Shown here: in pieces, positions 2,849 to 60,395 of the stretch
Numbering within the stretch: the stretch's first letter is position 1
Layout of the letters: each line of letters opens with the position of its first letter
Assembly (NCBI GenBank): GCA_016188865.1
Contig: JACPGX010000001.1
Location: forward strand, 205,197 to 269,196
Direction: 5' to 3'
DNA: 64,000 nt
From: Candidatus Nealsonbacteria bacterium
GTDB taxonomy: Bacteria; Patescibacteriota; Minisyncoccia; Minisyncoccales; MHMH01
Translations under genes and position numbers: made by a program
The notes under the pieces: model-generated
What the model was told of the DNA's origin: nothing
The model's input: only the letters and a program-made list of their open reading frames with translations
Databases searched by the model: none

Positions 2849-4159
2849 CTATTCAGTGCGGGATTCAAGTACAACCTTAAAAATCAATTCTTTTCCGCTC
2901 CTAAAAACTTTCAGGACAACTTCATCTCCAGAATTATATTTTTGCATGATTTTTGCCAAAGAATTTTCAGCAGTTATTTTTTCACTATTGAATTCTAAAA
3001 TAATATCTGCCTCTTTAAGGCCTGCTTTTTCTGCGGCAGAATTAGGCAAAATAGCAGCTTCTCCCTTGCCGGTTACAAGCCAAGCGCCGTAAGAAACTGG
3101 CAAGTTATTATCTTGCTGAATTTTTTCTGTGATAATGGTGTATTTTATTCCTAAAAAGGGATAAATAATTTTCCCTGAATATTTAACTTGCTCAATATCT
3201 CTTTTAGCTTTATTGACCGGTATGGCAAAGCCAATGTTTTGAGCTTCAAGGACTGTGGCCGTGTTGATTCCAACGACTTCGCCCATTAAATTCAAAAGGG
3301 GGCCGCCCGAATTGCCTTTGTTGATTGCCGCATCTGTTTGAATAACATCCTCAATGGTTTCCACTAGACCGCCGCCTTCGGCAGTAATTGTTCTGCCCAA
3401 ACCGGAAATTACTCCAACGGAAATGGTATTCCTAAATTCGCCTAAAGCGTTTCCAATGGTAATGACTGTTTGGCCAATCTGCAGTTTGTCAGAATTACCG
3501 AGCTCAACCACTGGAAAATATTTTTGAATCAGCTGGCCCGAATCGTCAATTCGGCTTTTCGTTTCAATTCTTAATACGGCTAAATCCTGTAGAGGATCTC
3601 TAGCTAAAACTTTTGCTGAAAACTTTTTTCCATCATTGGTAAAAACAGTGTAATCCGCTTCCTCGTCTAGAACTACGTGTTTATTAGTTAAAATCATGCC
3701 ATCTTCAGAAACAATGAAGCCGGTACCTCCGCCAATTTCTTTCTTTTCCGTTCCTATTTGGCGCTTCTGAGGAACGCCAAAATTAAAAGGCTCCCCAAAA
3801 ATCTGTTCAAATTCCTGAAAAGGATTAATGTAATACTGCTCAAAAACCGGCAAATCCTTGCTAATAACAATGCTAACTACAGCCGGAGAGGCAGTTTTAA
3901 TCACATTGATAATTTTTTCCTCTTCAGTAGTTTGAGGAATATATTCTTTTTCAATTGCTTTTTCTGGAGATGGGGTGCTAAACTTTGAAAGATAGTCTTT
4001 GGCTTCAAAATAAAAAACGCTGCCGGAAATAATGCCTGCCAAAAAGCCAAAAAATGAAGACGCAAAAATAATGGATGCAAAAATCCAAAAAGTCTTATTT
4101 TTCCAGAACTTGGGGAATTTTATTTTTATATTAGGAGAATCCAAATCGTAAAGCGTCAT
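2849..4159 (-). CDS. htrA: HtrA/DegP-type trypsin-like serine protease with C-terminal PDZ domain
   Basis: TM anchor, TNKHVV, GNSGGPLLN, and a PDZ-like tail. ATGA overlap with the iscU stop. Confidence 0.9.
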   Translation of the reverse strand: MTLYDLDSPNIKIKFPKFWKNKTFWIFASIIFASSFFGFLAGIISGSVFYFEAKDYLSKFSTPSPEKAIEKEYIPQTTEEEKIINVIKTASPAVVSIVISKDLPVFEQYYINPFQEFEQIFGEPFNFGVPQKRQIGTEKKEIGGGTGFIVSEDGMILTNKHVVLDEEADYTVFTNDGKKFSAKVLARDPLQDLAVLRIETKSRIDDSGQLIQKYFPVVELGNSDKLQIGQTVITIGNALGEFRNTISVGVISGLGRTITAEGGGLVETIEDVIQTDAAINKGNSGGPLLNLMGEVVGINTATVLEAQNIGFAIPVNKAKRDIEQVKYSGKIIYPFLGIKYTIITEKIQQDNNLPVSYGAWLVTGKGEAAILPNSAAEKAGLKEADIILEFNSEKITAENSLAKIMQKYNSGDEVVLKVFRSGKELIFKVVLESRTE

Positions 4160-9025: not shown

Positions 9026-9067
9026 GAGGTCCGACCTCCCGACAAATATGACGGGAGGTCGGACCTC
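9026..9067. repeat. PE hairpin element, intergenic copy (gaggtccgacctcccg-10 nt-cgggaggtcggacctc)
   Basis: 16-bp perfect stem. Arms are identical to the copy inside tsaD (34384-34425). Confidence 0.9.
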
Positions 9068-10994: not shown

Positions 10995-12281
10995 TTAGAT
11001 GATTTGTTCAATATTCATTGTTCCCATTTTTTCTCCCTCAATAAAGCCCTCCATGGCAGCTTCAGCCAGATAGCCCTGCCGGATCCAATCATTAAGCCAC
11101 TGGTAAGCATATCTGGGATTTTCCTGCAGGCTGCCAAAACCTGATTTCAAAAGCCACCTTTTGTTAAATTCTTCCTGAGAACCAATGGGCGGGGCTATAA
11201 TTATGGGCAATCCCAAAGCAGAATAAAAAGAAAGCTCGGATGGCTTAGTCCACAAAATATCGGTTTTTCTCAGAGCTTCATTAAATTTCTGAAAATAATC
11301 TTCGATATTTTCTTCAAAAATAATCTCTATACTAGGATTGCCTTTTAGCTTTAATTTTTCTAAATTATGCTCAAAATATTCCTTAACTTTTTCTTTAATG
11401 CCAGCGACTAAAATCACCTTAAGTTCTTTCGCCCATATTTTTACTACCAGCGATTTAGCAATCTGGATGCCGATTTCTCTCTGAGCCCCGGCTCCTCCAA
11501 CGGCAAACATTATAGTTAAAGGATGGTCCGAAGATGATGGTAAGTTTCCAAGATAGGTTTCAAGCAAATGCTCGTATTTGCTAAGGTATCTTTTTTGCGG
11601 ATCTAAATTTAAAATTCTACTGCCCAAATCATCTTTAAGATTGCGCATTTCTTCCCCGTCAATAATATCTTGGGGCAAGGGATACCCTGTAAAAAAAATA
11701 TTCTCCGACTTTATCCCGTAAGCTTTAAGTCTCTCCACCACCCTAAGATTGGGAGCGCAATACTTTATTCTGCTCCTACCCGGCTCGAGGGGGGCCCAGG
11801 TTCTGGAAATGTCGGCATCGGCAACAACGCAAAAAATCTCGCCAGGGTAATTAAAGTATTCAGCCATAAAAGCTGGCACGAAAAACGTAGTGACAAATGG
11901 CAAATTTCCGTTCCTCAATTTTAATTCTTCAATAAGATGTCTGCCCCAGTTTTTTTTAATCAGGGAGTAAATTTGTTTTAGCTGAATATTCGACTTAGAC
12001 AAGTCTCTTTTGGGATAATAGCTTAAAATTTCTTGAAGCTTATCCATAACGGCAAAAGCCAGCTGACCAATGATGGGAATCCGTTTGATCCGGGAAATAA
12101 ATTCATAAAATTTTCTTGATTTTTCCCAGATATTCCTGTCTTTGGAAGGAATTCCTTCGTAATTGTTGGCATTGATGATTTTTCCCTCCAAAGCCAGGTG
12201 CCTCAAAGGATAAGCAGTCCTTTGGTGCCCGTAACCCATGTTTACCGCTACCACCCAGGCTTTTTTAGTTGTACTTGCCAT
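10995..12281 (-). CDS. GT-B glycosyltransferase, MGDG-synthase/UgtP-like
   Basis: N-terminal VAVNMGYGH motif and a central GGAGAQ. Overlaps the comEC stop by 34 nt. Confidence 0.5.
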   Translation of the reverse strand: MASTTKKAWVVAVNMGYGHQRTAYPLRHLALEGKIINANNYEGIPSKDRNIWEKSRKFYEFISRIKRIPIIGQLAFAVMDKLQEILSYYPKRDLSKSNIQLKQIYSLIKKNWGRHLIEELKLRNGNLPFVTTFFVPAFMAEYFNYPGEIFCVVADADISRTWAPLEPGRSRIKYCAPNLRVVERLKAYGIKSENIFFTGYPLPQDIIDGEEMRNLKDDLGSRILNLDPQKRYLSKYEHLLETYLGNLPSSSDHPLTIMFAVGGAGAQREIGIQIAKSLVVKIWAKELKVILVAGIKEKVKEYFEHNLEKLKLKGNPSIEIIFEENIEDYFQKFNEALRKTDILWTKPSELSFYSALGLPIIIAPPIGSQEEFNKRWLLKSGFGSLQENPRYAYQWLNDWIRQGYLAEAAMEGFIEGEKMGTMNIEQII

Positions 12282-13684
12282 ACACGTTTATTGTACCACC
12301 AAATAAAGCCAAACAGAATGAAATAAAAAACTATCAGCCAAAGCCAGTGCAAATTGCCCACAGCCATGGAAACTAACGGCATTTTGCTAAACCAATCAAC
12401 AATTTTCGTAATATATGTCAAAGAAAGCCAAACGGGCCAAGACAATAAAAACCCAAGAGGTTGCAAGATAATACCGAAAATTGCAAAAATAAAAATTAAG
12501 ATAGTAATTGGAGCCAAAAAGGGAACTATTAAAATATTAACAACAGGACTCAATAAGGATATTCTGCCAAAATTATAAGCTAAAATCGGCAAAGTAAAAA
12601 CTTGGGCCGAAAGAGTAGCAGATAAAGTGGTTCTTAATGGAAAAACTTTTGGATTAGGTAAAAGCCTTAGCCAATTTGAAAAATACGGCTCTAAATAAAT
12701 AAGGCCTAAAATGGCTAAAAAAGAAAGCTGGAAACCTACGTCTTTCGTCAAGAGAAAAGGATTTTGAACAAGCATAAAAGTTGCCGCAAAAAATACCGCT
12801 CTTGAGCCGGATGACATGCGTCCTAATTTTTTAGCTAAAATAAAAATAACGGCCATAATAAAAGCCCTGACAGCTGAAGCCTGGGCTCCGATCATTAAAA
12901 TGTAAAGAAAAAGCAAAACTATCGAAATATAAAACGGCGCAAAGGAAGATATTATAGAAGAAATAATGGTTATATTCATTCCGGAAACCGCCGCAATATG
13001 GCGGGTGCCGGTAATATTGAGCTTGTCTTTCCATTCTCGGGAAATATTAGATTCTTGGCCGAAAACTAATGCCTCCAAAAAACCTTCTTGCGGCGGCGAA
13101 ATAAAAGAACCGGCGGTATCTCTAAATTTATTTTTAAAAGATAAAATAATTTCCATTATCGGGTTGCCAAACCCGGAACTCATAAACTCAATTTTTGGAA
13201 AACTCATTACTGCCGTAATGCCGTCTTTTTTAAGATAATCACGATAGTTAAAATCATCGAAAACCGGCGGCATTTCCAAACGGCCAATAATTTTTAGTCT
13301 ATCCCCATAATTATATTTCGGATACCTCCCCGCCGTCACCAAAATCGGGCGAGAACCGTTCTCGCCCGATTTTATCACAAGCTTTATGCTAGCAGGCCTG
13401 ACATCGGGTTCTTTAACCACGATTCCGACAAACTCGACATTCCCTTCTTGGGGATAAACAATTTTTGACTCCGCCATCTGATACCGCCAAATTCCCAAAA
13501 CTAAAAACAGTAAGCAAAATCCGCCCGTAGCCAGTTTTTTATAACGCCAAAAAATTGAAATTAAAAATACTCCAATAATTAAAAAACCCAGTAAAAATAA
13601 CTGGGGCATAAAAATAAATGAACTCGCAAAAATTCCTCCTACAAACGCCAGACAAAAATACAAAAATATCCGCGACTTAGTCAT
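12248..13684 (-). CDS. comEC: ComEC/Rec2 DNA-uptake channel protein (no metallo-beta-lactamase domain)
   Basis: N-terminal TM plus OB-like region, HIAAVSGMNITI, many TM segments. Confidence 0.85.
   Translation of the reverse strand: MTKSRIFLYFCLAFVGGIFASSFIFMPQLFLLGFLIIGVFLISIFWRYKKLATGGFCLLFLVLGIWRYQMAESKIVYPQEGNVEFVGIVVKEPDVRPASIKLVIKSGENGSRPILVTAGRYPKYNYGDRLKIIGRLEMPPVFDDFNYRDYLKKDGITAVMSFPKIEFMSSGFGNPIMEIILSFKNKFRDTAGSFISPPQEGFLEALVFGQESNISREWKDKLNITGTRHIAAVSGMNITIISSIISSFAPFYISIVLLFLYILMIGAQASAVRAFIMAVIFILAKKLGRMSSGSRAVFFAATFMLVQNPFLLTKDVGFQLSFLAILGLIYLEPYFSNWLRLLPNPKVFPLRTTLSATLSAQVFTLPILAYNFGRISLLSPVVNILIVPFLAPITILIFIFAIFGIILQPLGFLLSWPVWLSLTYITKIVDWFSKMPLVSMAVGNLHWLWLIVFYFILFGFIWWYNKRVWQVQLKKPGW
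13341..13373. repeat. REP-3-like hairpin variant in-frame in comEC (aaaatcgggcgagaac-c-gttctcgcccgatttt)
   Basis: 33-nt perfect palindrome translated KSGENGSRPIL. It shares the core cgagaaccgttctcg with REP-3. Confidence 0.85.
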
Positions 13685-13777: not shown

Positions 13778-13823
13778 AAAAAATCGTATTATTATTGCCA
13801 TGGCTTTAATTTTACGATTTTTT
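13778..13823. repeat. Imperfect palindrome aaaaaatcgta..gccatggc..tacgatttttt at the 3' end of the 13822-14400 gene
   Basis: Related to the palindrome at 14414-14449. Could act as a terminator and/or a second operator. Confidence 0.6.
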
Positions 13824-14400
13824 ATAAATTAAACGCTTTCCTTAGCTCTCTGTCATCGCCCAAATTTTCAGCTACCACCAAACGCAACTCTTTTTCTAGC
13901 AAACCAAAAAATGTCCGCAATAAATCTATCTCAGCCCGACAATCGAAAGGATAAACCCAAATGCTTTTCTGAAACTGATAAAATCCCAATGTCTTTAATT
14001 TACTTCTGAAAGCATCTCGATGAAACTTTTTAAGTTGGGCGATGTCAAACATTACCATTCTCCATTTATCGTCCCACTTCTTTGGTTTGGCAATTTTTAA
14101 ATTATCGATCTGCAGCCATCCGGCTTTTTTCTTTCCTTCCCTTGTCAGAGAAATGCATATTTGGTGATTATTTTCTTGAATATTAATTAACCCTTGTTTT
14201 CTAAAATGATAGAAAGTATCAGAAACTTTCTGCTTGGGATATTTTTTAAATTTTTGGTGATATTTTAAAAGATTGGTTAGAAAACAGGGTGAAGTAGCCG
14301 CAATAGACACCGCTCCAGCGATCATTAACCAGCGAAAGATGTCTTTCCCAATTTCCGATTTTGGTTTTGTAAAATAATATTTATATTTTCTTATACTCAT
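13822..14400 (-). CDS. PaaX-like / Cas2-fold domain protein with N-terminal TM and wHTH-like segment
   Basis: WRMVMFDI..LKTLGFYQFQKSIWVYP resembles the Cas2/PaaX_C ferredoxin-fold pattern. No SD sequence before the ATG. Confidence 0.5.
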   Translation of the reverse strand: MSIRKYKYYFTKPKSEIGKDIFRWLMIAGAVSIAATSPCFLTNLLKYHQKFKKYPKQKVSDTFYHFRKQGLINIQENNHQICISLTREGKKKAGWLQIDNLKIAKPKKWDDKWRMVMFDIAQLKKFHRDAFRSKLKTLGFYQFQKSIWVYPFDCRAEIDLLRTFFGLLEKELRLVVAENLGDDRELRKAFNL

Positions 14401-14413
14401 ATTAATAAATAAT

Positions 14414-14449
14414 ATCGTATAATTAACGCCATGGCAATAATTATACGAT
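14414..14449. promoter_or_regulatory. 36-nt near-perfect palindrome (atcgtataatta..gccatggc..taattatacgat); candidate operator over the promoter
   Basis: Lies 14-49 nt upstream of the ATG at 14400 and contains TATAAT-like boxes. Confidence 0.5.
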
Positions 14450-14522
14450 AAATATTATGAATTATCCGTTACTGCTTACCTAAAAATAAAAAAGTGTCGA
14501 AATGACACTCCTTTGGCTACTC

Positions 14523-23973: not shown

Positions 23974-24009
23974 TGTGTACTATATATCACATATAGATGG
24001 AAAAGTCAA
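23958..24009. promoter_or_regulatory. Face-to-face promoters sharing one palindromic -10 box: TTGACA-17-TATATA-17-AGTCAA
   Basis: Plus strand: -35 at 23958-63 and -10 at 23981-86, driving mfd (ATG 23997). Minus strand: -35 is revcomp of 24004-09 with the same -10, driving the NUDIX leader. Confidence 0.55.
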
Positions 24010-26024
24010 CGGTGCCGGGTGTTAAATCGATTCTAATCGTCAGTATCAACCCCTACTTTTTAGACAGGGAGAATTTTTGGTTTGAAGAAAATATCAAACA
24101 AATACTGGAAGCGCGGAAAAATCAAACCTTCTTTCAAGATAATACCATATATGTAGACGTAGAAAAAAGCCCCGCCTTCGCCAAGGCTTCGGCGGGCAAG
24201 CAGAAAATTAAGCTTTCTGAATTTTTAAGAAAAATTGATGAAATGGGCTATGAAAAAGTTCAAAAGGTCTCCGAGCCCGGAGAATTTTCCCGCCAAGGAG
24301 GAATTATTGATATTTTCCCGTTAAATATAAATTGTGCCGTTAGAATTGAATTTTTCGGCAACTCAATAGAAAACATGGAAAAACTGCCCATTATTATTGA
24401 AAATGAAAAAGAAATCAAAGAAAGAATAAAAAATAAACTGAAAAGGCAGAAAATTTACTCGCAATTGGGAACATTAAAGCCGGGTGATTATTTGGTGCAT
24501 CTAGACCACGGCGTCGGAATTTACAGAGGTCGGACCTCCCAAGGAGGTCCGACCTCAAACGACTCAAACGATTACTACACATTGGAATATGCCCAGAACG
24601 ATAAACTCTATGTTCCGATTGGGCTGGAAAGAAAACTTTCAAGATATGTTGGATTTTCAGAGCCGAAAATATCGCGGCTAAGCTCGCCCGTCTGGATAAA
24701 CACCAAAAGAAAAATTAAAGAAGAAACTGAAAAACTAGCTAAAGAACTTTTGGAAATTTACGCCCAGAGAGAAATTTCAACTCGCCCATATTATATAGAA
24801 GATACGGAAATTGACGCCTTGCTGGCAAGTACTTTTGTTCACGAAGAAACTCCGGATCAAATCCAAGCCATGGAAGAAATTAAAAAAGATTTGGAAGAAA
24901 AAGAAGAGCCAATGGACAGAATTGTTTGCGGCGACGTGGGTTTTGGCAAAACTGAAATTGCCTTAAGGACCATTATTAAAGCGGTCAATTCCGGATATCA
25001 ATCGGCTTTGATTTGCCCAACCACTATTTTGGCCTCGCAGCATTGCCAGACTTTCCAAAAAAGAATTGGTGATCTTCCGATAAAAGTTGAATTATTAAGC
25101 CGTCTTCAATCAAAGAGGGAGCAGAAACAAATAATTCAAAATATCAAAGATGGCAAAACAGATATCGTTATAGGAACCCACCGCCTTTTATCAAATGACG
25201 TTAACTTTAAAAACTTAGGATTGCTGGTTATTGACGATGAACAAAGATTCGGAGTCAGGCAGAAAGAAAAATTAAAAAAAATAAGGACTTCCCTAGATGT
25301 TTTATCGCTTTCAGCCACGCCAATTCCCAGAACCCTCTACTTGGCCATGTCTTCTTTAAAAGATATCAGCATAATTCAAACGCCGCCTGCTCAACGGCTT
25401 CCGATTAAAACTTTGGTAAAACCATGGTCAAAAGAAATCATTAAAAAGGCAATTCAGGAAGAAATTTCGCGCAACGGCCAAGTTTATTACCTGCACAATC
25501 GCGTAGAAACTATTGAAACAGCAAAAAAATTGCTGGAAGATTTACTGCCGAAAGTAAAATTTGGAATTATCCACGGCAAAATGGAAGAAAAAAATTTAAT
25601 AAAGATAATGGATGATTTTACCAATAAAAAAATTGGCGTTTTAATCGCTACCACCATTATTGAAAACGGCCTGGACCTGCCCAATGTCAACACTTTAATT
25701 GCGGCCAATGCCGCCAAACTCGGACTTTCCCAGGCATATCAAATAAGAGGCAGAATCGGCAGGTCGCACATTCAGGCATTCGCTTATTTCTTGCATGGCG
25801 GCAATCTTTCTGAGCTAGCAAAGGAAAGATTAAGAGCTTTAAAAGAGGCGGAAGAGCTTGGTTCGGGATACCGAATTGCCATGAAAGATTTGGAACTTCG
25901 GGGCGCCGGCAACATTCTAGGAAAAGAGCAATCAGGCAACATCAACCATGTGGGACTGAATCTATATTGTCAAATGTTATCCGATGCGATTGAAAAACTG
26001 AAGGCTTACGATTATAATAAATAA
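23997..26024 (+). CDS. mfd: Transcription-repair coupling factor Mfd (short form, 675 aa)
   Basis: RNAP-interaction module PGDYLVHLDHGVGIY, helicase motifs DVGFGKTE and DDEQRFG, and a TRG-like region. Confidence 0.9.
   Translation: MEKSTVPGVKSILIVSINPYFLDRENFWFEENIKQILEARKNQTFFQDNTIYVDVEKSPAFAKASAGKQKIKLSEFLRKIDEMGYEKVQKVSEPGEFSRQGGIIDIFPLNINCAVRIEFFGNSIENMEKLPIIIENEKEIKERIKNKLKRQKIYSQLGTLKPGDYLVHLDHGVGIYRGRTSQGGPTSNDSNDYYTLEYAQNDKLYVPIGLERKLSRYVGFSEPKISRLSSPVWINTKRKIKEETEKLAKELLEIYAQREISTRPYYIEDTEIDALLASTFVHEETPDQIQAMEEIKKDLEEKEEPMDRIVCGDVGFGKTEIALRTIIKAVNSGYQSALICPTTILASQHCQTFQKRIGDLPIKVELLSRLQSKREQKQIIQNIKDGKTDIVIGTHRLLSNDVNFKNLGLLVIDDEQRFGVRQKEKLKKIRTSLDVLSLSATPIPRTLYLAMSSLKDISIIQTPPAQRLPIKTLVKPWSKEIIKKAIQEEISRNGQVYYLHNRVETIETAKKLLEDLLPKVKFGIIHGKMEEKNLIKIMDDFTNKKIGVLIATTIIENGLDLPNVNTLIAANAAKLGLSQAYQIRGRIGRSHIQAFAYFLHGGNLSELAKERLRALKEAEELGSGYRIAMKDLELRGAGNILGKEQSGNINHVGLNLYCQMLSDAIEKLKAYDYNK
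24526..24556. repeat. PE hairpin element, short-loop copy in-frame in mfd (gaggtcggacctcc-caa-ggaggtccgacctc)
   Basis: 14-bp perfect stem translated RGRTSQGGPTS. The arm sequence matches the copies at 9026 and 34384. Confidence 0.9.
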
Positions 26025-26030
26025 ATTATC

Positions 26031-26057
26031 AATCTTACGAGGCGAAGCCTCGTAAAT
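26031..26057. repeat. REP-2 hairpin, 5'-flank copy (ttacgaggc-gaa-gcctcgtaa)
   Basis: Lies 12 nt upstream of the RAYT-2 ATG. Confidence 0.9.
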
Positions 26058-26069
26058 TCGTAAATTTTA

Positions 26070-26783
26070 ATGAAGAGAGTAATATTCGCCAAAGATCAAA
26101 TCTATCATGTTTATAATCGCGGTGTAGAAAAACGAAATATCTTTTTAGATGATAAAGATTATTTTCGGTTTATTCACAATCTCTTTGAATTTAACGATGA
26201 AAAACCAGCAGAAAATATTTATTATAAACAACCAATGCTTCAGTCGCAGAAAATACAATCTTACGAGGCTTCGCCTCGTAAGATTAATATGCCTAGAAAA
26301 TTACTAGTAGAAATTATGGCATTTTGTCTGATGCCCAATCACTATCATTTATTGCTAAGACAAAAACAAGATAGGGGGATCACCAGATTTATGCAAAAAT
26401 TAGGTACTGGATATTCTATGTATTTTAATCAAAAGCACGAAAGAACCGGAATTTTATTCCAGGGACCGTTCAAGGCCATTTTAGTCGATAGGGAAACTTA
26501 TTTTTATTATTTACCATATTACATTCACTTTAATCCCCTAGATTTGATTGAGCCAGAATGGAGAAATGGCAAAATTAATAATTACAAAGAAGCCTTAAAT
26601 TTTCTGGAAAATTATCGCTGGTCAAGCCATCTTGATTATATTGGCAAGAAAAATTTTCCCTCGGTGACCCAACGGGAATTTCTTTTAGAATACCATCAAA
26701 ATGGAAACCGATATAAACAATCTATTGAAAATTGGCTAAAAGAAATACAACTAGAAAAAATAAAAGATATAATGCTGGAATAA
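26070..26783 (+). CDS. REP-associated tyrosine transposase-like protein (IS200/Y1 HUH family), paralog 2
   Basis: DQIYHVYNRG, FCLMPNHYHLLL, YYIHFNP. Confidence 0.85.
   Translation: MKRVIFAKDQIYHVYNRGVEKRNIFLDDKDYFRFIHNLFEFNDEKPAENIYYKQPMLQSQKIQSYEASPRKINMPRKLLVEIMAFCLMPNHYHLLLRQKQDRGITRFMQKLGTGYSMYFNQKHERTGILFQGPFKAILVDRETYFYYLPYYIHFNPLDLIEPEWRNGKINNYKEALNFLENYRWSSHLDYIGKKNFPSVTQREFLLEYHQNGNRYKQSIENWLKEIQLEKIKDIMLE
26257..26285. repeat. REP-2 hairpin, internal in-frame copy (loop inverted: ttc)
   Basis: aatcttacgaggc-ttc-gcctcgtaagatt, translated QSYEASPRKI. Confidence 0.9.
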
Positions 26784-26811
26784 ATCTTACGAGGCGAAGC
26801 CTCGTAAGATT
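26783..26811. repeat. REP-2 hairpin, 3'-flank copy
   Basis: aatcttacgaggc-gaa-gcctcgtaagatt, starting at the last base of the stop codon. Confidence 0.9.
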
Positions 26812-33586: not shown

Positions 33587-34648
33587 TTAGGAGATCCGTA
33601 AATTAGCTTCGGCTTTAATATTTTTTCTGACGTCTTTTCTGTGGAAATAAGCAGTTGCGGCCACCATTGCGGCATTGTCGGTGCACAAATTTTTTGGCGG
33701 AACCAAAAAATTTAGTTTATAGTTTAGAGTTTTTAGTTTATAGTCGAATTGTTTTCTTAACTCTTCATTCGCTGCTACGCCGCCTCCAAGAATGATTGAT
33801 TTTACTCCAAAATCCCTTGCTGCCTTTATGGTCTTATGCATCAAAACATCAATTATCGCCTGCTGAACTTCGTAACACATCTCTATTTTATCATAATTAC
33901 CCTTTTTTACTTTATATAATACGGCTGTTTTAAGACCGGAAAAACTAAAATCATAATTTTTTTGCCTAATCATCGGCCTCGGCAGTTGGTCGGAAACCCG
34001 ACGTCCGACCATTTTTGCGGCTGTGGCTGCAATAGCTGGGCCACCGGGATAGCCGAGGCCTAAAATCCTGGCAACCTTATCAAGGCATTCGCCAGCTGCG
34101 TCATCACGAGTTTCGCCTATTAATTTATATTTTCCGATAGCTTTCATCAAAACTAACTGCGTATGCCCACCCGACACCACCAAAGCCACCGCCGGAAAAA
34201 CTATTGAGGCCGGGCCTCCATAGTGTTCGCTAATGAAATTGGCGAGAATGTGCGCTTCGATGTGGTTGACTGAAATTAATGATTTTTTATATTTTTTTGC
34301 AATTTCTTTGGCAAAGTTGATCCCCTGCCATAAACAGGGTTCTAATCCTGGGCCGACGGTCACGGTGACGAAATCAATTTTTAGAGGTCCGACCTCCCGT
34401 AATATTTTTCGGGAGGTCGGACCTCCTAATATTCTCAAAACTTTTTCAAAGACAACCGGTAAATTCTTTTGATGCTCGCGTTTCGCTAAGAAGGGATAAA
34501 CCCCTCCATATTTTGCGTGGATTTTCACTTGCGAAGAGACTGTATTTGATATAATTTTGAAATTAGAATTTTTTACTTCCAGTAAAGCAATGGCTGTATC
34601 ATCGCAGGAAGTGTCAATTCCTAATATCTTAATATTTTGGGAGGCCAT
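33587..34648 (-). CDS. tsaD: tRNA N6-adenosine threonylcarbamoyltransferase TsaD
   Basis: GIDTSCDDT, VNHIEAH, CTDNAAM. Confidence 0.95.
   Translation of the reverse strand: MASQNIKILGIDTSCDDTAIALLEVKNSNFKIISNTVSSQVKIHAKYGGVYPFLAKREHQKNLPVVFEKVLRILGGPTSRKILREVGPLKIDFVTVTVGPGLEPCLWQGINFAKEIAKKYKKSLISVNHIEAHILANFISEHYGGPASIVFPAVALVVSGGHTQLVLMKAIGKYKLIGETRDDAAGECLDKVARILGLGYPGGPAIAATAAKMVGRRVSDQLPRPMIRQKNYDFSFSGLKTAVLYKVKKGNYDKIEMCYEVQQAIIDVLMHKTIKAARDFGVKSIILGGGVAANEELRKQFDYKLKTLNYKLNFLVPPKNLCTDNAAMVAATAYFHRKDVRKNIKAEANLRIS
34384..34425. repeat. PE hairpin element, in-frame copy inside tsaD
   Basis: gaggtccgacctcccg-10 nt-cgggaggtcggacctc, translated GGPTSRKILREVGP. This gives about 11 extra residues relative to E. 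coli TsaD as recalled. Confidence 0.9.
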
Positions 34649-50576: not shown

Positions 50577-50607
50577 AAAACTGACGAGAACCGTTCTCGT
50601 CAGTTTT
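50577..50607. repeat. REP-3 hairpin, 3'-flank copy (aaaactgacgagaac-c-gttctcgtcagtttt)
   Basis: Ends one base before the RAYT-3 stop codon. Preceded by a partial duplicate, ctgacgaaaa. Confidence 0.9.
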
Positions 50608-51333
50608 TTATTCGATGGCAACACGTTGAGAATCAGCTAATTCTTTTTTGAACTGAAGCCAATCGTTAACGAATCTTTGCCCTTCGCCCGCTCCGCCGAC
50701 TGTTTCAAATAAAAACTCTCTGCTGGTTACTGAAGGAAAATTCCTCTTGCCTAAATAGTCAGAATAACTTGACCATCGGTAATTTTCTAAAAATTCTATT
50801 ATTTCTTGCAATTTCCTGCCGCTAATTCCCCTTTCCTTCCAATTCTGAACTAAAATTGCCACTGGGTTTGTATGAATATAAACGAAAACTGTTATTAATT
50901 GTTTATCATCTTTAACGTGGACTATTTTATATTTTCCCTGAAACAGGTGGCCACTTCTTTTATATTTTTTATTATAATATCCGCCGTATCCCGCCCCAAT
51001 TTTTCTCATAAACTTGCTTATTCCTCCATTTCTTAACTGTCTTACCAGCAGATGCGCGTGATTCGGCATCAAACAAAACGCTAAAATCTCCAATAAACAT
51101 TCCCTGCCCGTATGTCTTTTATACGAACTATCTAAACTGACGAGAACGGTTCTCGTCAGTTTTTGTTCTTGACGATAGTATGAAGAAGTAGGTTTTTCAT
51201 CATTGAATTCAAATAAATCATGAATCATTCTAAAATAATCTTTTTGATCTTTGAAAAGCTTTAACCCTTCTACGGCTCTAATAACGATGTGATAAATTTC
51301 GCCGTTTACTAATGGTGGTCGTTTTATTGGCAT
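50608..51333 (-). CDS. REP-associated tyrosine transposase-like protein (IS200/Y1 HUH family), paralog 3
   Basis: GEIYHIVIRA, FCLMPNHAHLLV, VYIHTNP. Confidence 0.85.
   Translation of the reverse strand: MPIKRPPLVNGEIYHIVIRAVEGLKLFKDQKDYFRMIHDLFEFNDEKPTSSYYRQEQKLTRTVLVSLDSSYKRHTGRECLLEILAFCLMPNHAHLLVRQLRNGGISKFMRKIGAGYGGYYNKKYKRSGHLFQGKYKIVHVKDDKQLITVFVYIHTNPVAILVQNWKERGISGRKLQEIIEFLENYRWSSYSDYLGKRNFPSVTSREFLFETVGGAGEGQRFVNDWLQFKKELADSQRVAIE
51134..51162. repeat. REP-3 hairpin, internal in-frame copy (centre g)
   Basis: aaactgacgagaac-g-gttctcgtcagttt, translated KLTRTVLVSL. Confidence 0.9.
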
Positions 51334-51364
51334 AAAACTGACGAGAACCGTTCTCGTCAGTTTT
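51334..51364. repeat. REP-3 hairpin, 5'-flank copy
   Basis: Starts at the base next to the ATG (51331-33), leaving no room for an SD sequence. Confidence 0.9.
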
Positions 51365-55914: not shown

Positions 55915-55966
55915 GTATTTTCAAAGTACCGCATCTAATGACTTCTAACACGAAGAAAAAACTCGG

Positions 55967-55996
55967 TCAACAAAAAAGGACGCTAGGCGTCCTTTG
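55967..55996 (-). terminator. Terminator/-35 cassette, copy 1 (caacaaaaaaggacgctaggcgtcctttg)
   Basis: On the minus strand this reads AAAGGACGC-CUA-GCGUCCUUUUUU, followed directly by GTTGAC. Confidence 0.75.
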
Positions 55997-56004
55997 GTTA
56001 TTGT

Positions 56005-56163
56005 TCATCTTTTAACCGGAACGGGCACTTTTTCGGGCATTGGCGTTTTTTCCGGTACGGGGCTCGAAGGCTCCGGTTTGGTTCTGGGAACTCTTCTGGG
56101 AATTCTTACCGGTTCTTCTGTAGGAATAGTTTCCCTACGGTTATTTTCTGCGGAATCAAGCAT
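56005..56163 (-). CDS. Pro-rich 52-aa ORF (not in the supplied ORF track)
   Basis: AGGAGG lies 6 nt upstream of ATG 56161-63. The ATG overlaps the upstream stop (AATGCTTGA). Terminator lies 10 nt downstream. Confidence 0.4.
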   Translation of the reverse strand: MLDSAENNRRETIPTEEPVRIPRRVPRTKPEPSSPVPEKTPMPEKVPVPVKR

Positions 56164-57517
56164 TTTCTTCCTCCTTTTTTTGCTGATAACGCTTTTGGTA
56201 TTCTACGCTTTGGTCTGGAAAATTTTTGTAATCTATGAAAGGCTCTCTTTCTTGGTCTGGAGGCAAAAATTCAGAACAAATCTTTTTGCCTTCCAAAACT
56301 AAACGGATATCAGTGGCCTTATCAACAACCAATCTTTGCACTTCGCGAATAAACTTATTGCCCAGAGGAACATTACCTTCATCGGCTTCCCTTTGAAGAA
56401 TAACTGCCTCAATTTTCCTAAGGTAGGGCAAAAGCCGAGACCAGGAATTGTCTATTGCATATAAATCATTTAACCATTCTTTGTCAGGGTAAAGGCATTC
56501 TTCTAAAAGATACTTAAGGGATTCTTTTCTGGCCAAATTGTATTTTTCCTGTCCGGGAATCTCATAAATAGCTTCGGGATTAAGCAGGGAGTTAAACTTT
56601 CTTAAAATTTGTACCAATTCCGCTTCAAAATTTTCGTACAGCGAAATGATAGTTGAATGAACTGGCGTCACGTTAAGCGAGCTTCTTTCTGGCTGGGGAT
56701 ATTTCCAGTAAGCAGTGGTTAAAAGCAAGCCCAAATTAAGATATTGCAAAAAATAAATCAATTGAGCCAAGTTTCCCTGGCTTATTTCCGGAGATACATG
56801 GAAAAGATAATCAATCCGATGCCGAGCTATATTAATTTCATTCAATGCTTTAACTTCTGCGCCCCTGATGACTAAGCCGTAAGAAGCTCCATGGTCTCTT
56901 TTGGGCACATCTTTAAATGTTGTAAAATGATCGAGGTTAACAGAAATAATAAACAAAGCTAAGGCAATAAACTTGGCGCGATGCTGATATTTATTAAAAC
57001 CAGTATCAAAACCAACTGATATTTGTATTTCGCCTGCCTTAATGAGCCTTGCTTTTATTTGGCTGGCCAATGCTTGGGAATCGACTGTCGGCTGAAAACA
57101 GTGCTTTTCTCTTCCTTGGCCGGGATAAATTTTAGCCCCTAAAGTCACAAAAGATAAAAGCTGCCGGCTATTATTTAGAGAAGAAAATATGATTGAACCT
57201 GGCCAGTAAGGCGAATTAGCTAAAGCTTGGGCTGCTGCCTCACGGACACCAGGGTCTGGATCATATTTTGAGGCCTTCTTTAATGACGGGATTGCTTCCA
57301 GAGAGCCGATTACTCCCAAGGCCTCGGCTGCTTTCTCGCGGACAAAATAATACTGATCTGTTTCCAAAACTTCGATTAAAGCTTTGGTTGCTTCCGAAGA
57401 GCCGATTACTCCCAAGGCCTTAGCTGCTTCGTAACGGCTAAAATTATCTCCCTTGTTTAATTGATGCAAAAGACTTTTAATACTGGCCTTACTCGCCTTT
57501 TCTTTCTTATTTTCCAT
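56156..57517 (-). CDS. HEAT-repeat (PBS-lyase type) protein with ~330-aa unknown C-terminal domain
   Basis: Repeated AAxALGVIGSxEA units. Start trimmed to MENKKEK, because the longer ORF runs through its own promoter. Confidence 0.65.
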   Translation of the reverse strand: MENKKEKASKASIKSLLHQLNKGDNFSRYEAAKALGVIGSSEATKALIEVLETDQYYFVREKAAEALGVIGSLEAIPSLKKASKYDPDPGVREAAAQALANSPYWPGSIIFSSLNNSRQLLSFVTLGAKIYPGQGREKHCFQPTVDSQALASQIKARLIKAGEIQISVGFDTGFNKYQHRAKFIALALFIISVNLDHFTTFKDVPKRDHGASYGLVIRGAEVKALNEINIARHRIDYLFHVSPEISQGNLAQLIYFLQYLNLGLLLTTAYWKYPQPERSSLNVTPVHSTIISLYENFEAELVQILRKFNSLLNPEAIYEIPGQEKYNLARKESLKYLLEECLYPDKEWLNDLYAIDNSWSRLLPYLRKIEAVILQREADEGNVPLGNKFIREVQRLVVDKATDIRLVLEGKKICSEFLPPDQEREPFIDYKNFPDQSVEYQKRYQQKKEEENA

Positions 57518-57557
57518 CGCCGTCATTCCTCCACAAATTTCAATGTACTCTAATAAC

Positions 57558-57586
57558 TTAATAGCACTAAGGGAAAACCCGGTCAA
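57558..57586 (-). promoter_or_regulatory. Promoter TTGACC-17-TATTAA
   Basis: The -35 box directly follows the REP-3-like hairpin. Confidence 0.6.
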
Positions 57587-57590
57587 CAAA

Positions 57591-57621
57591 AAAACTGACG
57601 AGAACCATTCTCGGCAGTTTT
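57591..57621. repeat. REP-3 hairpin, solo degenerate copy (two mismatches) acting as a terminator
   Basis: aaaactgacgagaac-c-attctcggcagtttt. Confidence 0.8.
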
Positions 57622-57670
57622 AATTATTTATAAAGGCACTCTAAAATTCATTTAAGGAGGGTTGCTACTG

Positions 57671-57958
57671 CTACCACCCAGAGTTGCTGCTGCTACTACC
57701 CCAAAAATAAACGTCACTAAGTTTTATTATTACGAAGGATATAAGACTGCTAAAAAAAGAAATGCCTCCGACGAATATTATGATATTACTTATGTTATGG
57801 AGAAGTTCGCTCTGGAACATGAACCTTAATACTGCGCCCACACCAATCAGGAATACATTTGAAAATATCAAGATATAAAATATCTTATCTATCTTCTTGT
57901 TCATCCTCTTATAGTTCTCGTAAATTTGCCGTGATTCTTCATCAATTTCATGGGCCAT
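57671..57958 (-). CDS. Small 2-TM membrane protein (95 aa)
   Basis: AAGGAGGTG RBS. Promoter TTGACA-17-TAAGAT at 58004-58032. Confidence 0.6.
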   Translation of the reverse strand: MAHEIDEESRQIYENYKRMNKKIDKIFYILIFSNVFLIGVGAVLRFMFQSELLHNISNIIIFVGGISFFSSLISFVIIKLSDVYFWGSSSSNSGW

Positions 57959-58041
57959 ATTATATTCACCTCCTTTTTAATGTGCCGCATAATTATAGAG
58001 TACATCTTAGTTCAACGCAAAAAATCTGTCAAGACATCGTA

Positions 58042-58087
58042 TTACGAGACCCGGACTCGTAAAAAATTACGAGTCCGGATCTCGTAA
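58042..58087. repeat. Inverted REP doublet (REPIN-like): ttacgag-acccgga-ctcgtaa / ttacgag-tccggat-ctcgtaa
   Basis: The two hairpins are reverse complements of each other apart from one base. Their stems equal the REP-2 stem. Confidence 0.8.
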
Positions 58088-58104
58088 AACTAGCGGAAAC
58101 CGAA

Positions 58105-58134
58105 ACAACAAAAAAGGACGCTAGGCGTCCTTTG
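58105..58134 (-). terminator. Terminator cassette, copy 2
   Basis: Hairpin identical to copy 1. The -35 part is degenerate (TTGTTG). Confidence 0.7.
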
Positions 58135-58185
58135 ATTGTTTATTCTACTGATCGAGAGTATTTGGCGGCCTTTTGTTTTTACCCT

Positions 58186-58500
58186 TCAGTCAACCAAGGC
58201 TCTTCGGCTTCGATGGCGTCCCAATAAATCGTACAATTTCTGAATTGGTTTTGAAAAAAATCGGAACCCCCTATCTCTTAATTCAATCTCTCTCCCCTCA
58301 TTCTCAACGCGCAGGCACAAATCCGGGGAGGTAGATACCCAGCCACAAATACTTTCACCATGGTAGTATCTCAACGACAAACCATAACCTTCAAATTCGG
58401 TATGCCACACATCAGACCACGCGTCACCCCCTCGAAGCCACTGAAGTTCTCCGCTCCTAGTTTTTTCAATGACCATCTTCAGTAGTCTTGAATTATTCAT
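58186..58500 (-). CDS. Hypothetical 104-aa protein
   Basis: GAGGAGGAG RBS. Promoter TTGACA-17-TATATT at 58536-58564. Confidence 0.55.
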   Translation of the reverse strand: MNNSRLLKMVIEKTRSGELQWLRGGDAWSDVWHTEFEGYGLSLRYYHGESICGWVSTSPDLCLRVENEGREIELRDRGFRFFSKPIQKLYDLLGRHRSRRALVD

Positions 58501-58577
58501 TCTCTCCTCCTCTCATTTTTTTTACACCATATGACAATATATACCCATTCATTGAATATGTCAAATCGAATGGAATC

Positions 58578-58607
58578 GTCAACAAAAAAGGACGCTAAGC
58601 GTCCTTT
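58578..58607 (-). terminator. Terminator/-35 cassette, copy 3 (loop taa); contains the etfA stop codon
   Basis: The 5' arm encodes the EtfA C-terminus ..TKDA. GTTGAC follows. Confidence 0.75.
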
Positions 58608-59605
58608 GTGAGTTCTTTTAATTTTTCAATAAATGCCGGTAAAACTTCCTGCCACCGACCGACTATTCCGAAATCAGCTTCTTTAAAGATATTGGCTTCC
58701 GGATCGCTATTAATTGCCACAATAACTTTGGCTCCGGAGCAGCCAGCCAAATGCTGACTCGACCCGGAAACTCCGACAACGATGTAAAGATCGGGGACGA
58801 CAATTTTGCCGGTAAGGCCGATCTGCAGACTAGCAGGCATCCAACCCTGATCGCAAGGAGGCCGACTGGCGCCCACTGCTCCTTTTAGCACCCTAGCTAA
58901 TTCCTCTAATTTCTTAAAACCTTCCGGCCCGCCTATGCCCCGGCCGCCGCAAACAATCACTTTAGCTGCTTCTAGTTTAACTCCGGAGTATTCTTCGATT
59001 TTCTTGCCAATGACCTTTGTTTTTAATTCAGCTTGTAGTACGGCCGGATCTATTATAATGCATTCTATCACCTGACCTGTTCTCTTTTCATCTCTTGGCA
59101 AAGGAGAAAATGCTTTCTGCCTGACTGTGGCCATTTGCGGAAAGAAATCCGAAGCAAAGACTGCCCTGGCACTGCCGCCGTAAACCGGCTTTGTCATCAA
59201 AAGATTTTTTTTAGCAGAATCAATGCTTAGCTCGAGGCAATCGGTCACTAAGCCAACTCTCAACCTGAAAGCTAATCTGGGGGCTAAGTCTCTGCCCATA
59301 GCCGTCTGGCCAAAAAGCAAAATATTTGGAAGCCCCATGCTCACCATTTGTTCCAGTGCATACAGATAAGTTTCTGCCTGATAATTATCGAGCAAAGAAT
59401 TCTGGACAAGGTAAACTCTATCTGCTCCCAAAGCAATAACTTCTTGAGAAAAATCGCTTGCTCTGCTGCCAAATAAAACACAGGAAACTTTTTCTTTAAG
59501 GCTATCGGCAAGCAATCTAGCGCATGCTAAAAGTTCTGCGGTAACTGAATTTAATTTTCCTTCGCTAACTTCTCCTAAAACCATTATTCCTTTATATTCT
59601 CTCAT
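58595..59605 (-). CDS. etfA: Electron transfer flavoprotein alpha subunit
   Basis: C-terminal FAD-binding region GVSGSSQHLAG..INSDP. Confidence 0.93.
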   Translation of the reverse strand: MREYKGIMVLGEVSEGKLNSVTAELLACARLLADSLKEKVSCVLFGSRASDFSQEVIALGADRVYLVQNSLLDNYQAETYLYALEQMVSMGLPNILLFGQTAMGRDLAPRLAFRLRVGLVTDCLELSIDSAKKNLLMTKPVYGGSARAVFASDFFPQMATVRQKAFSPLPRDEKRTGQVIECIIIDPAVLQAELKTKVIGKKIEEYSGVKLEAAKVIVCGGRGIGGPEGFKKLEELARVLKGAVGASRPPCDQGWMPASLQIGLTGKIVVPDLYIVVGVSGSSQHLAGCSGAKVIVAINSDPEANIFKEADFGIVGRWQEVLPAFIEKLKELTKDA

Positions 59606-59615
59606 AACTGCCTCC

Positions 59616-60395
59616 TCAAACCGCCTTTGCTTCGCGCAGTTTTAAAGCAAGCTTTGCGCCGGCTTCGGCCGGATTGTCAGCCTTCACCATTTGGCACTGT
59701 TTTTCCTTGATTGGCTGAAAGACTTTAAGGAGTTTAGAATGCGGAACGTCCAAGCTAATATCGGTTTTATTCCAAATAGTGGGCGTTTTCTTTTTGGCGG
59801 CCAGCACTCCCTTAACGCTGGCATACCTCGGATCTCCCAGTTCATTGGTTACGGTAATTAAAGCGGGCAAAATAGTTTCAATGGTTTCGTAACCGTCGGG
59901 AAGCAGGCGCTCTATCCTGACCTTAGTGTCAACTATTTCAATTTGTTTGGCTAAAGTTACTGCAGGAATTCCCAAAAATTCGGCAATGCCTATGCCGACT
60001 TGGCCGTTATCCCAATCAGCTGCCTGCCTGCCGCAAAGAATTAAATCGTATCTGCCGATTTTTCTAATAGCTGCTGCCAAAGCATGAGCCGCAGCCCAGC
60101 TATCAAGCCCATCAAAAGCCTCGTCTTCCAAAAGAATTAATTCGTCAGCTCCCATGGCTAAAGGTTTTTTAACCACTTCTCTGACAAAATTATTTCCTAA
60201 GCTCAAAATGGTAATTTTGCCTGATAATTTATCTTTAATGCGTAAAGCCGCTTCAACAGCGTGCATGTCAAAGGGACTGATAACCGAAGCTGTTCCGGAC
60301 GGCGTAATTATTTTTTTACCGGTTTCGTCTATCTTTAAATTCGAAGGCGGAATTTCAGGGTCAATTATCTGCTTGCAGCAAACAATTATATCCAT
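59616..60395 (-). CDS. etfB: Electron transfer flavoprotein beta subunit
   Basis: IVCCKQ..DP and LILCGRQAADWDNGQVG. Confidence 0.93.
   Translation of the reverse strand: MDIIVCCKQIIDPEIPPSNLKIDETGKKIITPSGTASVISPFDMHAVEAALRIKDKLSGKITILSLGNNFVREVVKKPLAMGADELILLEDEAFDGLDSWAAAHALAAAIRKIGRYDLILCGRQAADWDNGQVGIGIAEFLGIPAVTLAKQIEIVDTKVRIERLLPDGYETIETILPALITVTNELGDPRYASVKGVLAAKKKTPTIWNKTDISLDVPHSKLLKVFQPIKEKQCQMVKADNPAEAGAKLALKLREAKAV

Follow-up and report, generated by a model that had tools for sequence, protein, structure and literature searches.

What is the near-perfect palindrome of 46 bp at positions 58042-58087 of a 64-kb stretch (the window, to which all in-window copy counts below refer) from a metagenome-assembled genome (MAG) of Candidatus Nealsonbacteria, and to which enzyme does it belong? 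The original prediction took it for a REPIN-like inverted doublet of repetitive extragenic palindromic (REP) hairpins, the architecture of a mobile unit, and tied it to RAYT-2, a REP-associated tyrosine transposase (RAYT) gene of the same window. We conclude that the element is very probably an inverted dimer of a 21-nt REP-type hairpin and the product of a RAYT-like Y1 (HUH) system, that is, a REP doublet akin to bacterial interspersed mosaic elements (BIMEs) and to REPINs (REP doublets forming hairpins). Its hairpin family, with the core ACGAG-ACCCGGM-CTCGT, appears from its sequence associations to be the cognate hairpin of one RAYT-like clade widespread in Patescibacteria, the candidate phyla radiation (CPR).

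The first half of the doublet (58042-58062, TTACGAG-ACCCGGA-CTCGTAA) has a 7-bp stem and a 7-nt interior with a conserved A/A mismatch, while the second (58067-58087, TTACGAG-TCCGGAT-CTCGTAA) lies in inverted orientation and, just as originally described, is the reverse complement of the first except for one loop base. The AAAA spacer between them (58063-58066) becomes the loop of a long hairpin once the doublet folds as a single unit. A repeat search returned arms of 24 nt at 92% complementarity with 4 nt between them; beyond the 21-mers the palindrome runs on for 3 nt with 2/3 matching, which is too weak to tell one duplication from two insertions. Folded as single-stranded DNA (ssDNA), the 58-nt doublet stretch forms one long hairpin at -21.8 kcal/mol on the + strand (z -8.4) and -23.2 kcal/mol on the - strand (z -10.5); the single 21-mers fold weakly alone (-4.5/-4.6 kcal/mol). 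The 228-nt intergenic region that holds the doublet is 100% identical, at consensus level, in six independent Logan assemblies from six Sequence Read Archive runs, and the doublet is therefore real and no assembly artefact. In the window the pattern TTACGAG-N(3-30)-CTCGTAA is found at five places (0.00 expected from 100 shuffles), namely the two doublet halves and 26035, 26261 and 26787 around and inside RAYT-2, which bears out the claim that the 7-bp stem is that of the REP-2 hairpins around this gene. The 7-mer TTACGAG itself is found 15 times (4.5 expected), with 10 of the copies lying within these hairpins.

The same hairpin recurs in other genomes. A scan of 185,579 species-representative genomes with the 21-mer TTACGAGAYCCGGACTCGTAA matched four loci, all in CPR MAGs (two Saccharibacteria MAGs account for three of them, a Parcubacteria MAG for the fourth), and the identical 21-mer was present at 25 loci of Joint Genome Institute (JGI) metagenomes; a scan of viral contigs gave no match. 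The flanks of these 4 MAG and 25 JGI loci sort into ~16 unrelated contexts. In five independent locus groups (L008/L017/L020, L007/L013/L027, L037-L040, L041 and L042/L043) homologues of the window RAYT-like genes are flanked by this hairpin or by a variant sharing its core. In L008/L017/L020 and L037-L041, the gene is preceded by one or two hairpins, contains another in frame near residue 59 and has a further one at its 3' end; in L007/L013/L027 and L042/L043, inverted hairpin pairs with 48-nt spacers stand on either side of the RAYT gene, and these inverted pairs are the classical picture of a REPIN-flanked RAYT. Because the hairpin is placed in many different sites and has a cognate transposase clade, we regard it as a REP-type element. 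An alignment of 31 distinct family members, with the core ACGAG...CTCGT fixed by the construction of the search, reveals co-varying outer stem pairs (UA/CG at columns 3-23 and UA/AU at 4-22) and a covariation score of 0.127 compared with 0.086 for shuffled data, a level reached by 1/500 shuffles. The stem-top pair is nearly always mismatched (A/A or A/C), giving the hairpin its polarity.

Two further features were seen at these loci. In L008 (1671-1808) and L017 (2707-2823), a duplicated N-terminal RAYT fragment (residues 1-43) ending at the hairpin lies just upstream of the full gene, as though the stretch from the upstream hairpin to the internal one had been copied. A DnaA-box-like TTATCCACA within GGGGAAAGTTATCCACAGG is located 10-12 nt past the RAYT-flanking REP pairs (L007 1-10, 975-983), and the same site occurs ~75 nt past the hairpin of locus L006 (~4000-4015); these sites may mark a link of REP pairs with the replication origin.

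The core ACGAG-ACCCGGM-CTCGT tracks one RAYT clade across the five locus groups. The RAYTs of L008 and L007, both of which go with this core, are 62% identical, and those of L037, L041 and L042 are 72, 65 and 61% identical to that of L008. RAYT-2, RAYT-A and RAYT-C, the three RAYT-like genes of the window, are 41-48% identical to the L008 and L007 RAYTs and carry their own hairpins with other cores, none of them the doublet's. As the hairpin core tracks the clade and the window RAYTs lie outside it, we place the cognate enzyme outside the window; RAYT-2 and RAYT-C were rejected as unlikely cognate enzymes on their clade distance (41-48%), although the ACGAG/CTCGT stem that they share with the doublet may allow some cross-recognition. 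Such tracking agrees with the literature, in which every tnpA-REP gene is paired with a REP family of its own (PMC6006769). Moreover, RAYT-2, about 31 kb from the doublet, has no better claim to it than RAYT-C (50608-51333), which the original prediction missed and which, at 6.7 kb, is the RAYT-like gene closest to the doublet. The geometry T-K-ACGAG-N7-CTCGT-M-A is common to REP-2, to REP-C, which shares 6/7 stem bases, and to the doublet hairpin, and the TTACGAG/CTCGTAA match is therefore a superfamily trait, not the coincidence that had originally been allowed for. Hence the assignment of the doublet to the REPs of a RAYT system stands, given dispersed copies of the 21-mer that flank RAYT homologues in other CPR genomes, and the link to RAYT-2 is not supported, given a core that tracks another clade.

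Pairwise identity among the three window genes is 44-48%, and every one of them is bordered on either side by a hairpin of its own, a further copy of which lies in frame within the open reading frame (ORF). The RAYT-2 cassette (26035-26807, + strand; gene 26070-26783) carries TTACGAGGCGAAGCCTCGTAA, the REP-2 hairpin TTACGAG-GCGAAGC-CTCGTAA, at 26035-26055 and 26787-26807 and, within the ORF, at 26261-26281. In the RAYT-C cassette (50581-51360, - strand; gene 50608-51333) the hairpin is CTGACGAGAACNGTTCTCGTCAG (REP-C, CTGACGAG-AACNGTT-CTCGTCAG), located at 50581-50603, 51137-51159 (in the ORF) and 51338-51360, and in the RAYT-A cassette (133-949, - strand; gene 162-929) it is ACACCGGTTNAACCGGTGT (ACACCGGTT-N-AACCGGTGT), located at 139-157, 691-709 (in the ORF) and 926-944. 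With a separate hairpin for each, the three paralogues in 64 kb would fit one gene per REP family, but such a density of paralogues is unusual. Between the mfd stop (26024) and the topA start (26855) the gap is taken up by the 773-bp RAYT-2 cassette of hairpin, gene and hairpin, and mfd is present in the window in a short 675-aa form.

RAYT-2 matches Pfam PF01797 Y1_Tnp at 34.1 bits (cut-off 23), and the three window proteins match NCBIfam NF047646 REP_Tyr_transpos at 35.8-45.2 bits, below its cut-off of 80. H91 and H93 (HUH) and Y151 (YIHxNP), the last of which we take to be the catalytic tyrosine by comparison with RAYT motifs, are invariant in 37 family sequences, and the RAYT-like proteins have an extra C-terminal region with an invariant YRWSS motif. 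A sequence search of the PDB with RAYT-2 (phmmer) found no match, and a 6-sequence profile matched only ISDra2 TnpA and 4er8, weakly; the relationship was settled by a fold search, in which the AlphaFold model of RAYT-2 (predicted local distance difference test, pLDDT, 86; predicted template modelling score, pTM, 0.85) had as its best PDB match 4er8_A, the E. coli TnpA-REP with a REP hairpin (E 1e-5, TMt 0.67), ahead of IS608 and ISDra2 TnpA. The RAYT-like family comprises 427 clusters (50% identity) at E up to 1e-30 and 6,876 at E up to 1e-10.

We suggest that a RAYT-like enzyme would bind the hairpin on ssDNA, probably at the replication fork, and would cut and rejoin at the hairpin foot, thus spreading copies, by analogy with the E. 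coli TnpA-REP and IS200/IS605 paradigms (PMC3479197, PMC8266576, PMC6006769). The dimer could have formed when a nicked hairpin folded back and was copied, the AAAA making the turn, or when another insertion landed next to the first. Several points weigh against this account of the doublet. The window contains no gene of the cognate transposase clade, and it is in other genomes, not inside the window, that the REP sequence is found flanking a RAYT gene. The doublet is the single instance of paired ACGAG-ACCCGGM-CTCGT hairpins in the window, which covers 64 kb of a contig of at least 271 kb, and around the 29 public loci there are singlets or 48-nt-spaced pairs only, with no tight doublet of the 4-nt type. 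Its polarity (ACCCGGA, then TCCGGRT) is opposite to that of the RAYT-flanking pairs in L007 and L042. Finally, classical REPs carry a guide tetranucleotide (GTAG or CGTC) that is conserved on the 5' side of the hairpin foot (PMC3733652, PMC6006769), and no such tetranucleotide was present in the flanks of the 31 family members, where positions outside the stem vary.

The alternative that survives best is a true REPIN, the doublet itself being the replicating unit, copied by RAYT-2 through the shared stem or by a cognate enzyme elsewhere in the genome. We consider this possible but rather unlikely. The doublet does have REPIN architecture, consisting of two REPs of the same group, inverted, which fold as a whole into a long hairpin, with a spacer of merely 4 nt. 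In addition, all nine RAYT-adjacent hairpins of the window are singlets and four of the five dispersed REP elements are tight inverted doublets. Three tight GAGGTCSGACCTC (REP-1) doublets are present: an intergenic one at 9026-9067 (GAGGTCCGACCTCCCG - 10 nt - CGGGAGGTCGGACCTC), one at 34384-34425 in the tsaD ORF (33587-34648), whose 16-nt arms are the same but whose 10-nt spacer differs, and one at 24526-24556 in the mfd ORF (23997-26024) with opposite polarity and a 3-nt spacer. The first two, each 42 nt long, combine identical arms with unrelated spacers in different contexts and in this resemble P. fluorescens REPINs, in which the REP arms are common and the spacers all different (PMC3337134). 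Other CPR contigs also carry tight doublets of other hairpins (two in L015, one each in L010 and L026), and so the tight-doublet architecture extends beyond this genome.

On the other hand, a multi-copy doublet better conserved than the singlets, as befits a REPIN, was found neither in the window nor around the 29 public loci with the hairpin, which elsewhere spreads as 21-nt singlets, also as seven codons within genes, and the clade of RAYT-2 does not match the hairpin core. The REPIN-like architecture of the original prediction is thus upheld, since inverted doublets recur in REP-1; its mobile unit is not, as the census of TTACGAG..CTCGTAA hairpins in the window yielded only this one doublet and the site was without presence/absence polymorphism in the six identical assemblies (consensus level).

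The REP-1 doublets in mfd and tsaD are in frame, encoding RGRTSQGGPTS and GGPTSRKILREVGPL, respectively, and no RAYT with a REP-1 hairpin was present in the window. Tight inverted doublets with 0-5 nt spacers on other CPR contigs were located at L015 8014-8056 and 12133-12173, L010 3573-3611, L033 9799-9841 and L026 1412-1445, with CCGGGATGGCTTCCCGG as an example of their hairpins. A perfect 16-bp hairpin, AAAATCGGGCGAGAAC-G-GTTCTCGCCCGATTTT, at 13341-13373 in the ORF at 12248-13684, has a CGAGAAC-N-GTTCTCG core like REP-C and could be a further REP within a gene. Two long AT-rich palindromes centred on TGCCA|TGGC (ATCGTATAAT-like arms; 13778-13823 and 14401-14462) bracket the ORF at 13822-14400; these are operator-like and unrelated to the REP families.

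A role at the doublet's own site has to be weighed in its local setting, in which all neighbouring genes lie on the - strand. In the order of transcription, the electron transfer flavoprotein (ETF) gene ETF-alpha (58595-59605) is followed by a terminator-like hairpin, an orphan 104-aa ORF (58186-58500), a second terminator copy and then the doublet; downstream come a promoter-like site, a 95-aa membrane ORF (57671-57958), a decayed REP-C-like hairpin, a HEAT-repeat protein with a 52-aa ORF, a third terminator module and, finally, an iron-sulfur (Fe-S)/CCG oxidoreductase and an acyl-CoA dehydrogenase. The 46-bp element is non-coding and non-autonomous and lies between a terminator and the next promoter, and most likely it is a passive REP doublet (BIME/REPIN-like) without a dedicated host function.

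It is improbable that the doublet acts on the transcript, as a back-up terminator, a read-through insulator or a 3' stabilising hairpin for the 104-aa ORF. On the - strand one doublet hairpin is followed by TTTTTT and was flagged as weakly terminator-like, and REPs elsewhere attenuate transcription and stabilise mRNA (PMC3337134, PMC3733652). However, a stronger canonical terminator of the 104-aa ORF (58113-58133, - strand; 9-bp stem, 5 GC pairs, T-run) precedes the doublet by 25 nt in the direction of transcription, only 3/7 pairs of the hairpin stem are GC, and the long 21-bp hairpin form has no T-run after it. A known RNA family for the region was likewise rejected, as an Rfam search of 56000-60000 returned sub-threshold chance matches only (STnc540 at 27.6 bits, cut-off 38, and a plant microRNA).

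Slightly less probable still is a regulatory palindrome, an operator for a dimeric DNA-binding protein at the promoter of the 95-aa membrane ORF. The near-perfect palindrome ends 9 nt before the -35 box of the promoter-like site TTGACA-17-TAAGAT (58004-58032, - strand). Nevertheless, the same 21-mer occurs in the unrelated contexts of other organisms described above, in ORFs and by transposase genes, there is no adjacent regulator gene and the flanking ORFs are lineage-specific. That the palindrome arose by chance and matches the REP-2 stem by coincidence, for which one could say that a 7-bp match is short by itself, is refuted by the 0/100 shuffles that give even one such hairpin against five observed, the fold z of -8 to -10, the exact 21-mer in many genomes, and REP-C, with its 6/7 stem bases and the same 7+7+7 geometry.

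The preferred reading, a passive REP doublet, leaves the island around it to be described. The doublet had been placed in a small accessory insertion in the ETF cluster, and this is backed from within the window alone, where the orphan ORF and a thrice-repeated terminator module suggest an insertion. The 104-aa ORF had no homologue except itself among 5.8 billion proteins. The nearest relative of ETF-alpha (73% identical) is on a 1.4-kb contig, and the usable relatives, at 61-63% identity, have ETF beta/alpha in a different gene context. A decayed REP-C hairpin singlet (CTGACGAGAACCATTCTCGGCAG, 2 mismatches) is found 425 nt from the doublet, at 57595-57617, and belongs to the same small island.

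The terminator module (AAAGGACGCYTAGCGTCCTTT, then TTTTTTGTTGAC-like) occurs three times, with its third copy at 55968-56002, and a REP-C-like hairpin with the same tail occurs once (sites at 55946-56002, 57562-57620, 58092-58140 and 58580-58614). Between ETF-alpha and the Fe-S oxidoreductase, every module copy marks the end of a small cassette. The threefold repetition, together with the orphan ORF, suggests that small cassettes were added here, by serial cassette insertion or by duplication at the terminator. Integron attC sites were considered for the repeated modules and rejected, the R'/R'' consensus being absent and no integrase lying nearby.

On a larger scale, ~42000-64000 of the window forms a cluster of acetoacetyl-CoA synthetase, MeaB, ETF, Fe-S oxidoreductase, acyl-CoA dehydrogenase and aminotransferase genes, with a slightly higher GC content (0.41-0.45 vs 0.37-0.43 elsewhere in the window). 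The next-best matches of ETF-alpha are ~57-64% identical, and every named one is labelled Chloroflexota/Dehalococcoidia. The ETF/acyl-CoA cluster looks like a horizontal acquisition. That CPR-type hairpins and RAYT-C lie inside this island argues that it is no binning error.

Elsewhere the hairpin has also entered protein genes. Singlets are in frame inside long ORFs for methionine aminopeptidase (MetAP; L019 9007-9027), alanyl-tRNA synthetase (AlaRS; L009 228-248), leucyl-tRNA synthetase (LeuRS; L014 1331-1351), TsaD (L012 1431-1451), IOR-alpha (L029 1509-1529) and an ELP3-like radical SAM enzyme (L026 2245-2265). There the 21 nt make up exactly seven codons, giving the peptides YESGSR, YETRTR, ITRPGLV and ITSPGLV, and in an alignment of MetAP a 6-residue gap in the T. 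maritima sequence falls within ITRPGLV, the peptide that the hairpin encodes.

The transposase genes themselves follow a similar pattern, in that 7/9 RAYT-like genes examined repeat the hairpin that flanks them in frame, near residue 58-80. These internal hairpins lie at 691-709, 26261-26281 and 51137-51159 in the window and at L008 2038-2054, L037 9778-9798 and 15745-15763, and L041 10175-10195 elsewhere. In RAYT-2 and RAYT-C the loop of the internal copy is inverted relative to the flanking copies, and the RAYT-2 model shows the region that this copy encodes as a disordered loop, with pLDDT below 50 at residues 54-63 and 69-71. In the L008 clade, 68/119 homologues contain a peptide xRxPxSx, in most cases QRxPxSL, which a CAACGAG..CTCGTTG hairpin encodes.

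The doublet is closest in kind to the REPINs and RAYTs of P. fluorescens SBW25 (Bertels & Rainey 2011; PMC3116915, PMC3337134). In both systems inverted imperfect REP palindromes fold into a long hairpin, a central mismatch gives the REP its polarity and a hairpin family is specific to one RAYT clade; as in SBW25, inverted pairs of the doublet's hairpin flank the RAYT on both sides in L007 and L042 of the CPR. The differences are that the spacer is 4 nt here compared to 34-110 nt in SBW25, the REP unit is just 21 nt, the polarity is opposite to that of the RAYT-flanking pairs, and several RAYT paralogues (three in 64 kb) take the place of a single copy; here, too, there is one doublet in the window with no cognate RAYT nearby.

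The basic unit of E. coli BIMEs is likewise two inverted REPs with a short linker (Ton-Hoang et al. 2012; Messing et al. 2012, PDB 4er8; PMC3479197, PMC8266576, PMC6006769), and a Y1 HUH enzyme, whose structure 4er8 is the best structural match of RAYT-2, uses these REPs as substrates by recognising their hairpin in ssDNA. Unlike in the E. coli TnpA-REP system, there is here no conserved GTAG/CGTC tetranucleotide 5' of the hairpin foot, and the proteins score 36-45 bits against REP_Tyr_transpos (cut-off 80) and have the extra C-terminal region with YRWSS. Binding of E. coli BIMEs by IHF, gyrase or Pol I has been reported. The subterminal hairpins of IS200/IS605 elements (IS608, ISDra2) are also short imperfect ssDNA hairpins flanking a Y1 transposase gene, and the protein fold is common to both; here, however, the hairpins on both sides have the same sequence, there are dispersed copies free of the gene, and a further copy is in frame in the transposase ORF. 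Rickettsia palindromic elements (RPEs), reportedly described by Ogata and colleagues in 2000, are similarly found in frame in conserved protein genes, adding a short peptide. RPEs are roughly 100-150 bp long and are not known to have a transposase, whereas the present hairpin spans 21 nt, or seven codons, and goes with a Y1 transposase clade of its own, and the window doublet is intergenic.

To our knowledge, work on REP/RAYT systems has been confined almost entirely to Proteobacteria. Full-text literature searches returned no paper tying RAYTs or REPINs to CPR/Patescibacteria, and a paper on a closed Nealsonbacteria genome lists 39 predicted transposases and reports no REPs. The element is thus of a known kind, a REP doublet (BIME/REPIN-like), in a new setting and form: a CPR host, a 21-nt REP and a 4-nt spacer. 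New too are the divergent RAYT-like family with its extra C-terminal region and several paralogues per genome, and the presence of family members in frame in essential genes and within transposase genes.

A broader picture, which we put forward tentatively, is that of a highly diverse RAYT-like/REP system, still active in Patescibacteria, in which the 21-nt hairpins and tight inverted doublets would be mobile, their in-frame landing in MetAP, aminoacyl-tRNA synthetases, TsaD and Mfd would be tolerated as short peptide loops, and the transposase genes would keep their own in-frame hairpin (at about residue 60, in a disordered loop), where it could serve self-recognition or autoregulation; the window doublet would be one product of this system, marking the horizontally acquired ETF island as resident in the CPR. 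The doublet leads to a divergent RAYT-like family with 21-nt hairpins in essential and transposase genes, and host-specific hairpins in the ETF/acyl-CoA island, whose closest named relatives are Chloroflexota, argue for true residence in the CPR host. If active, the system would generate variation in protein loops and rearrangements in genomes that are among the smallest known.

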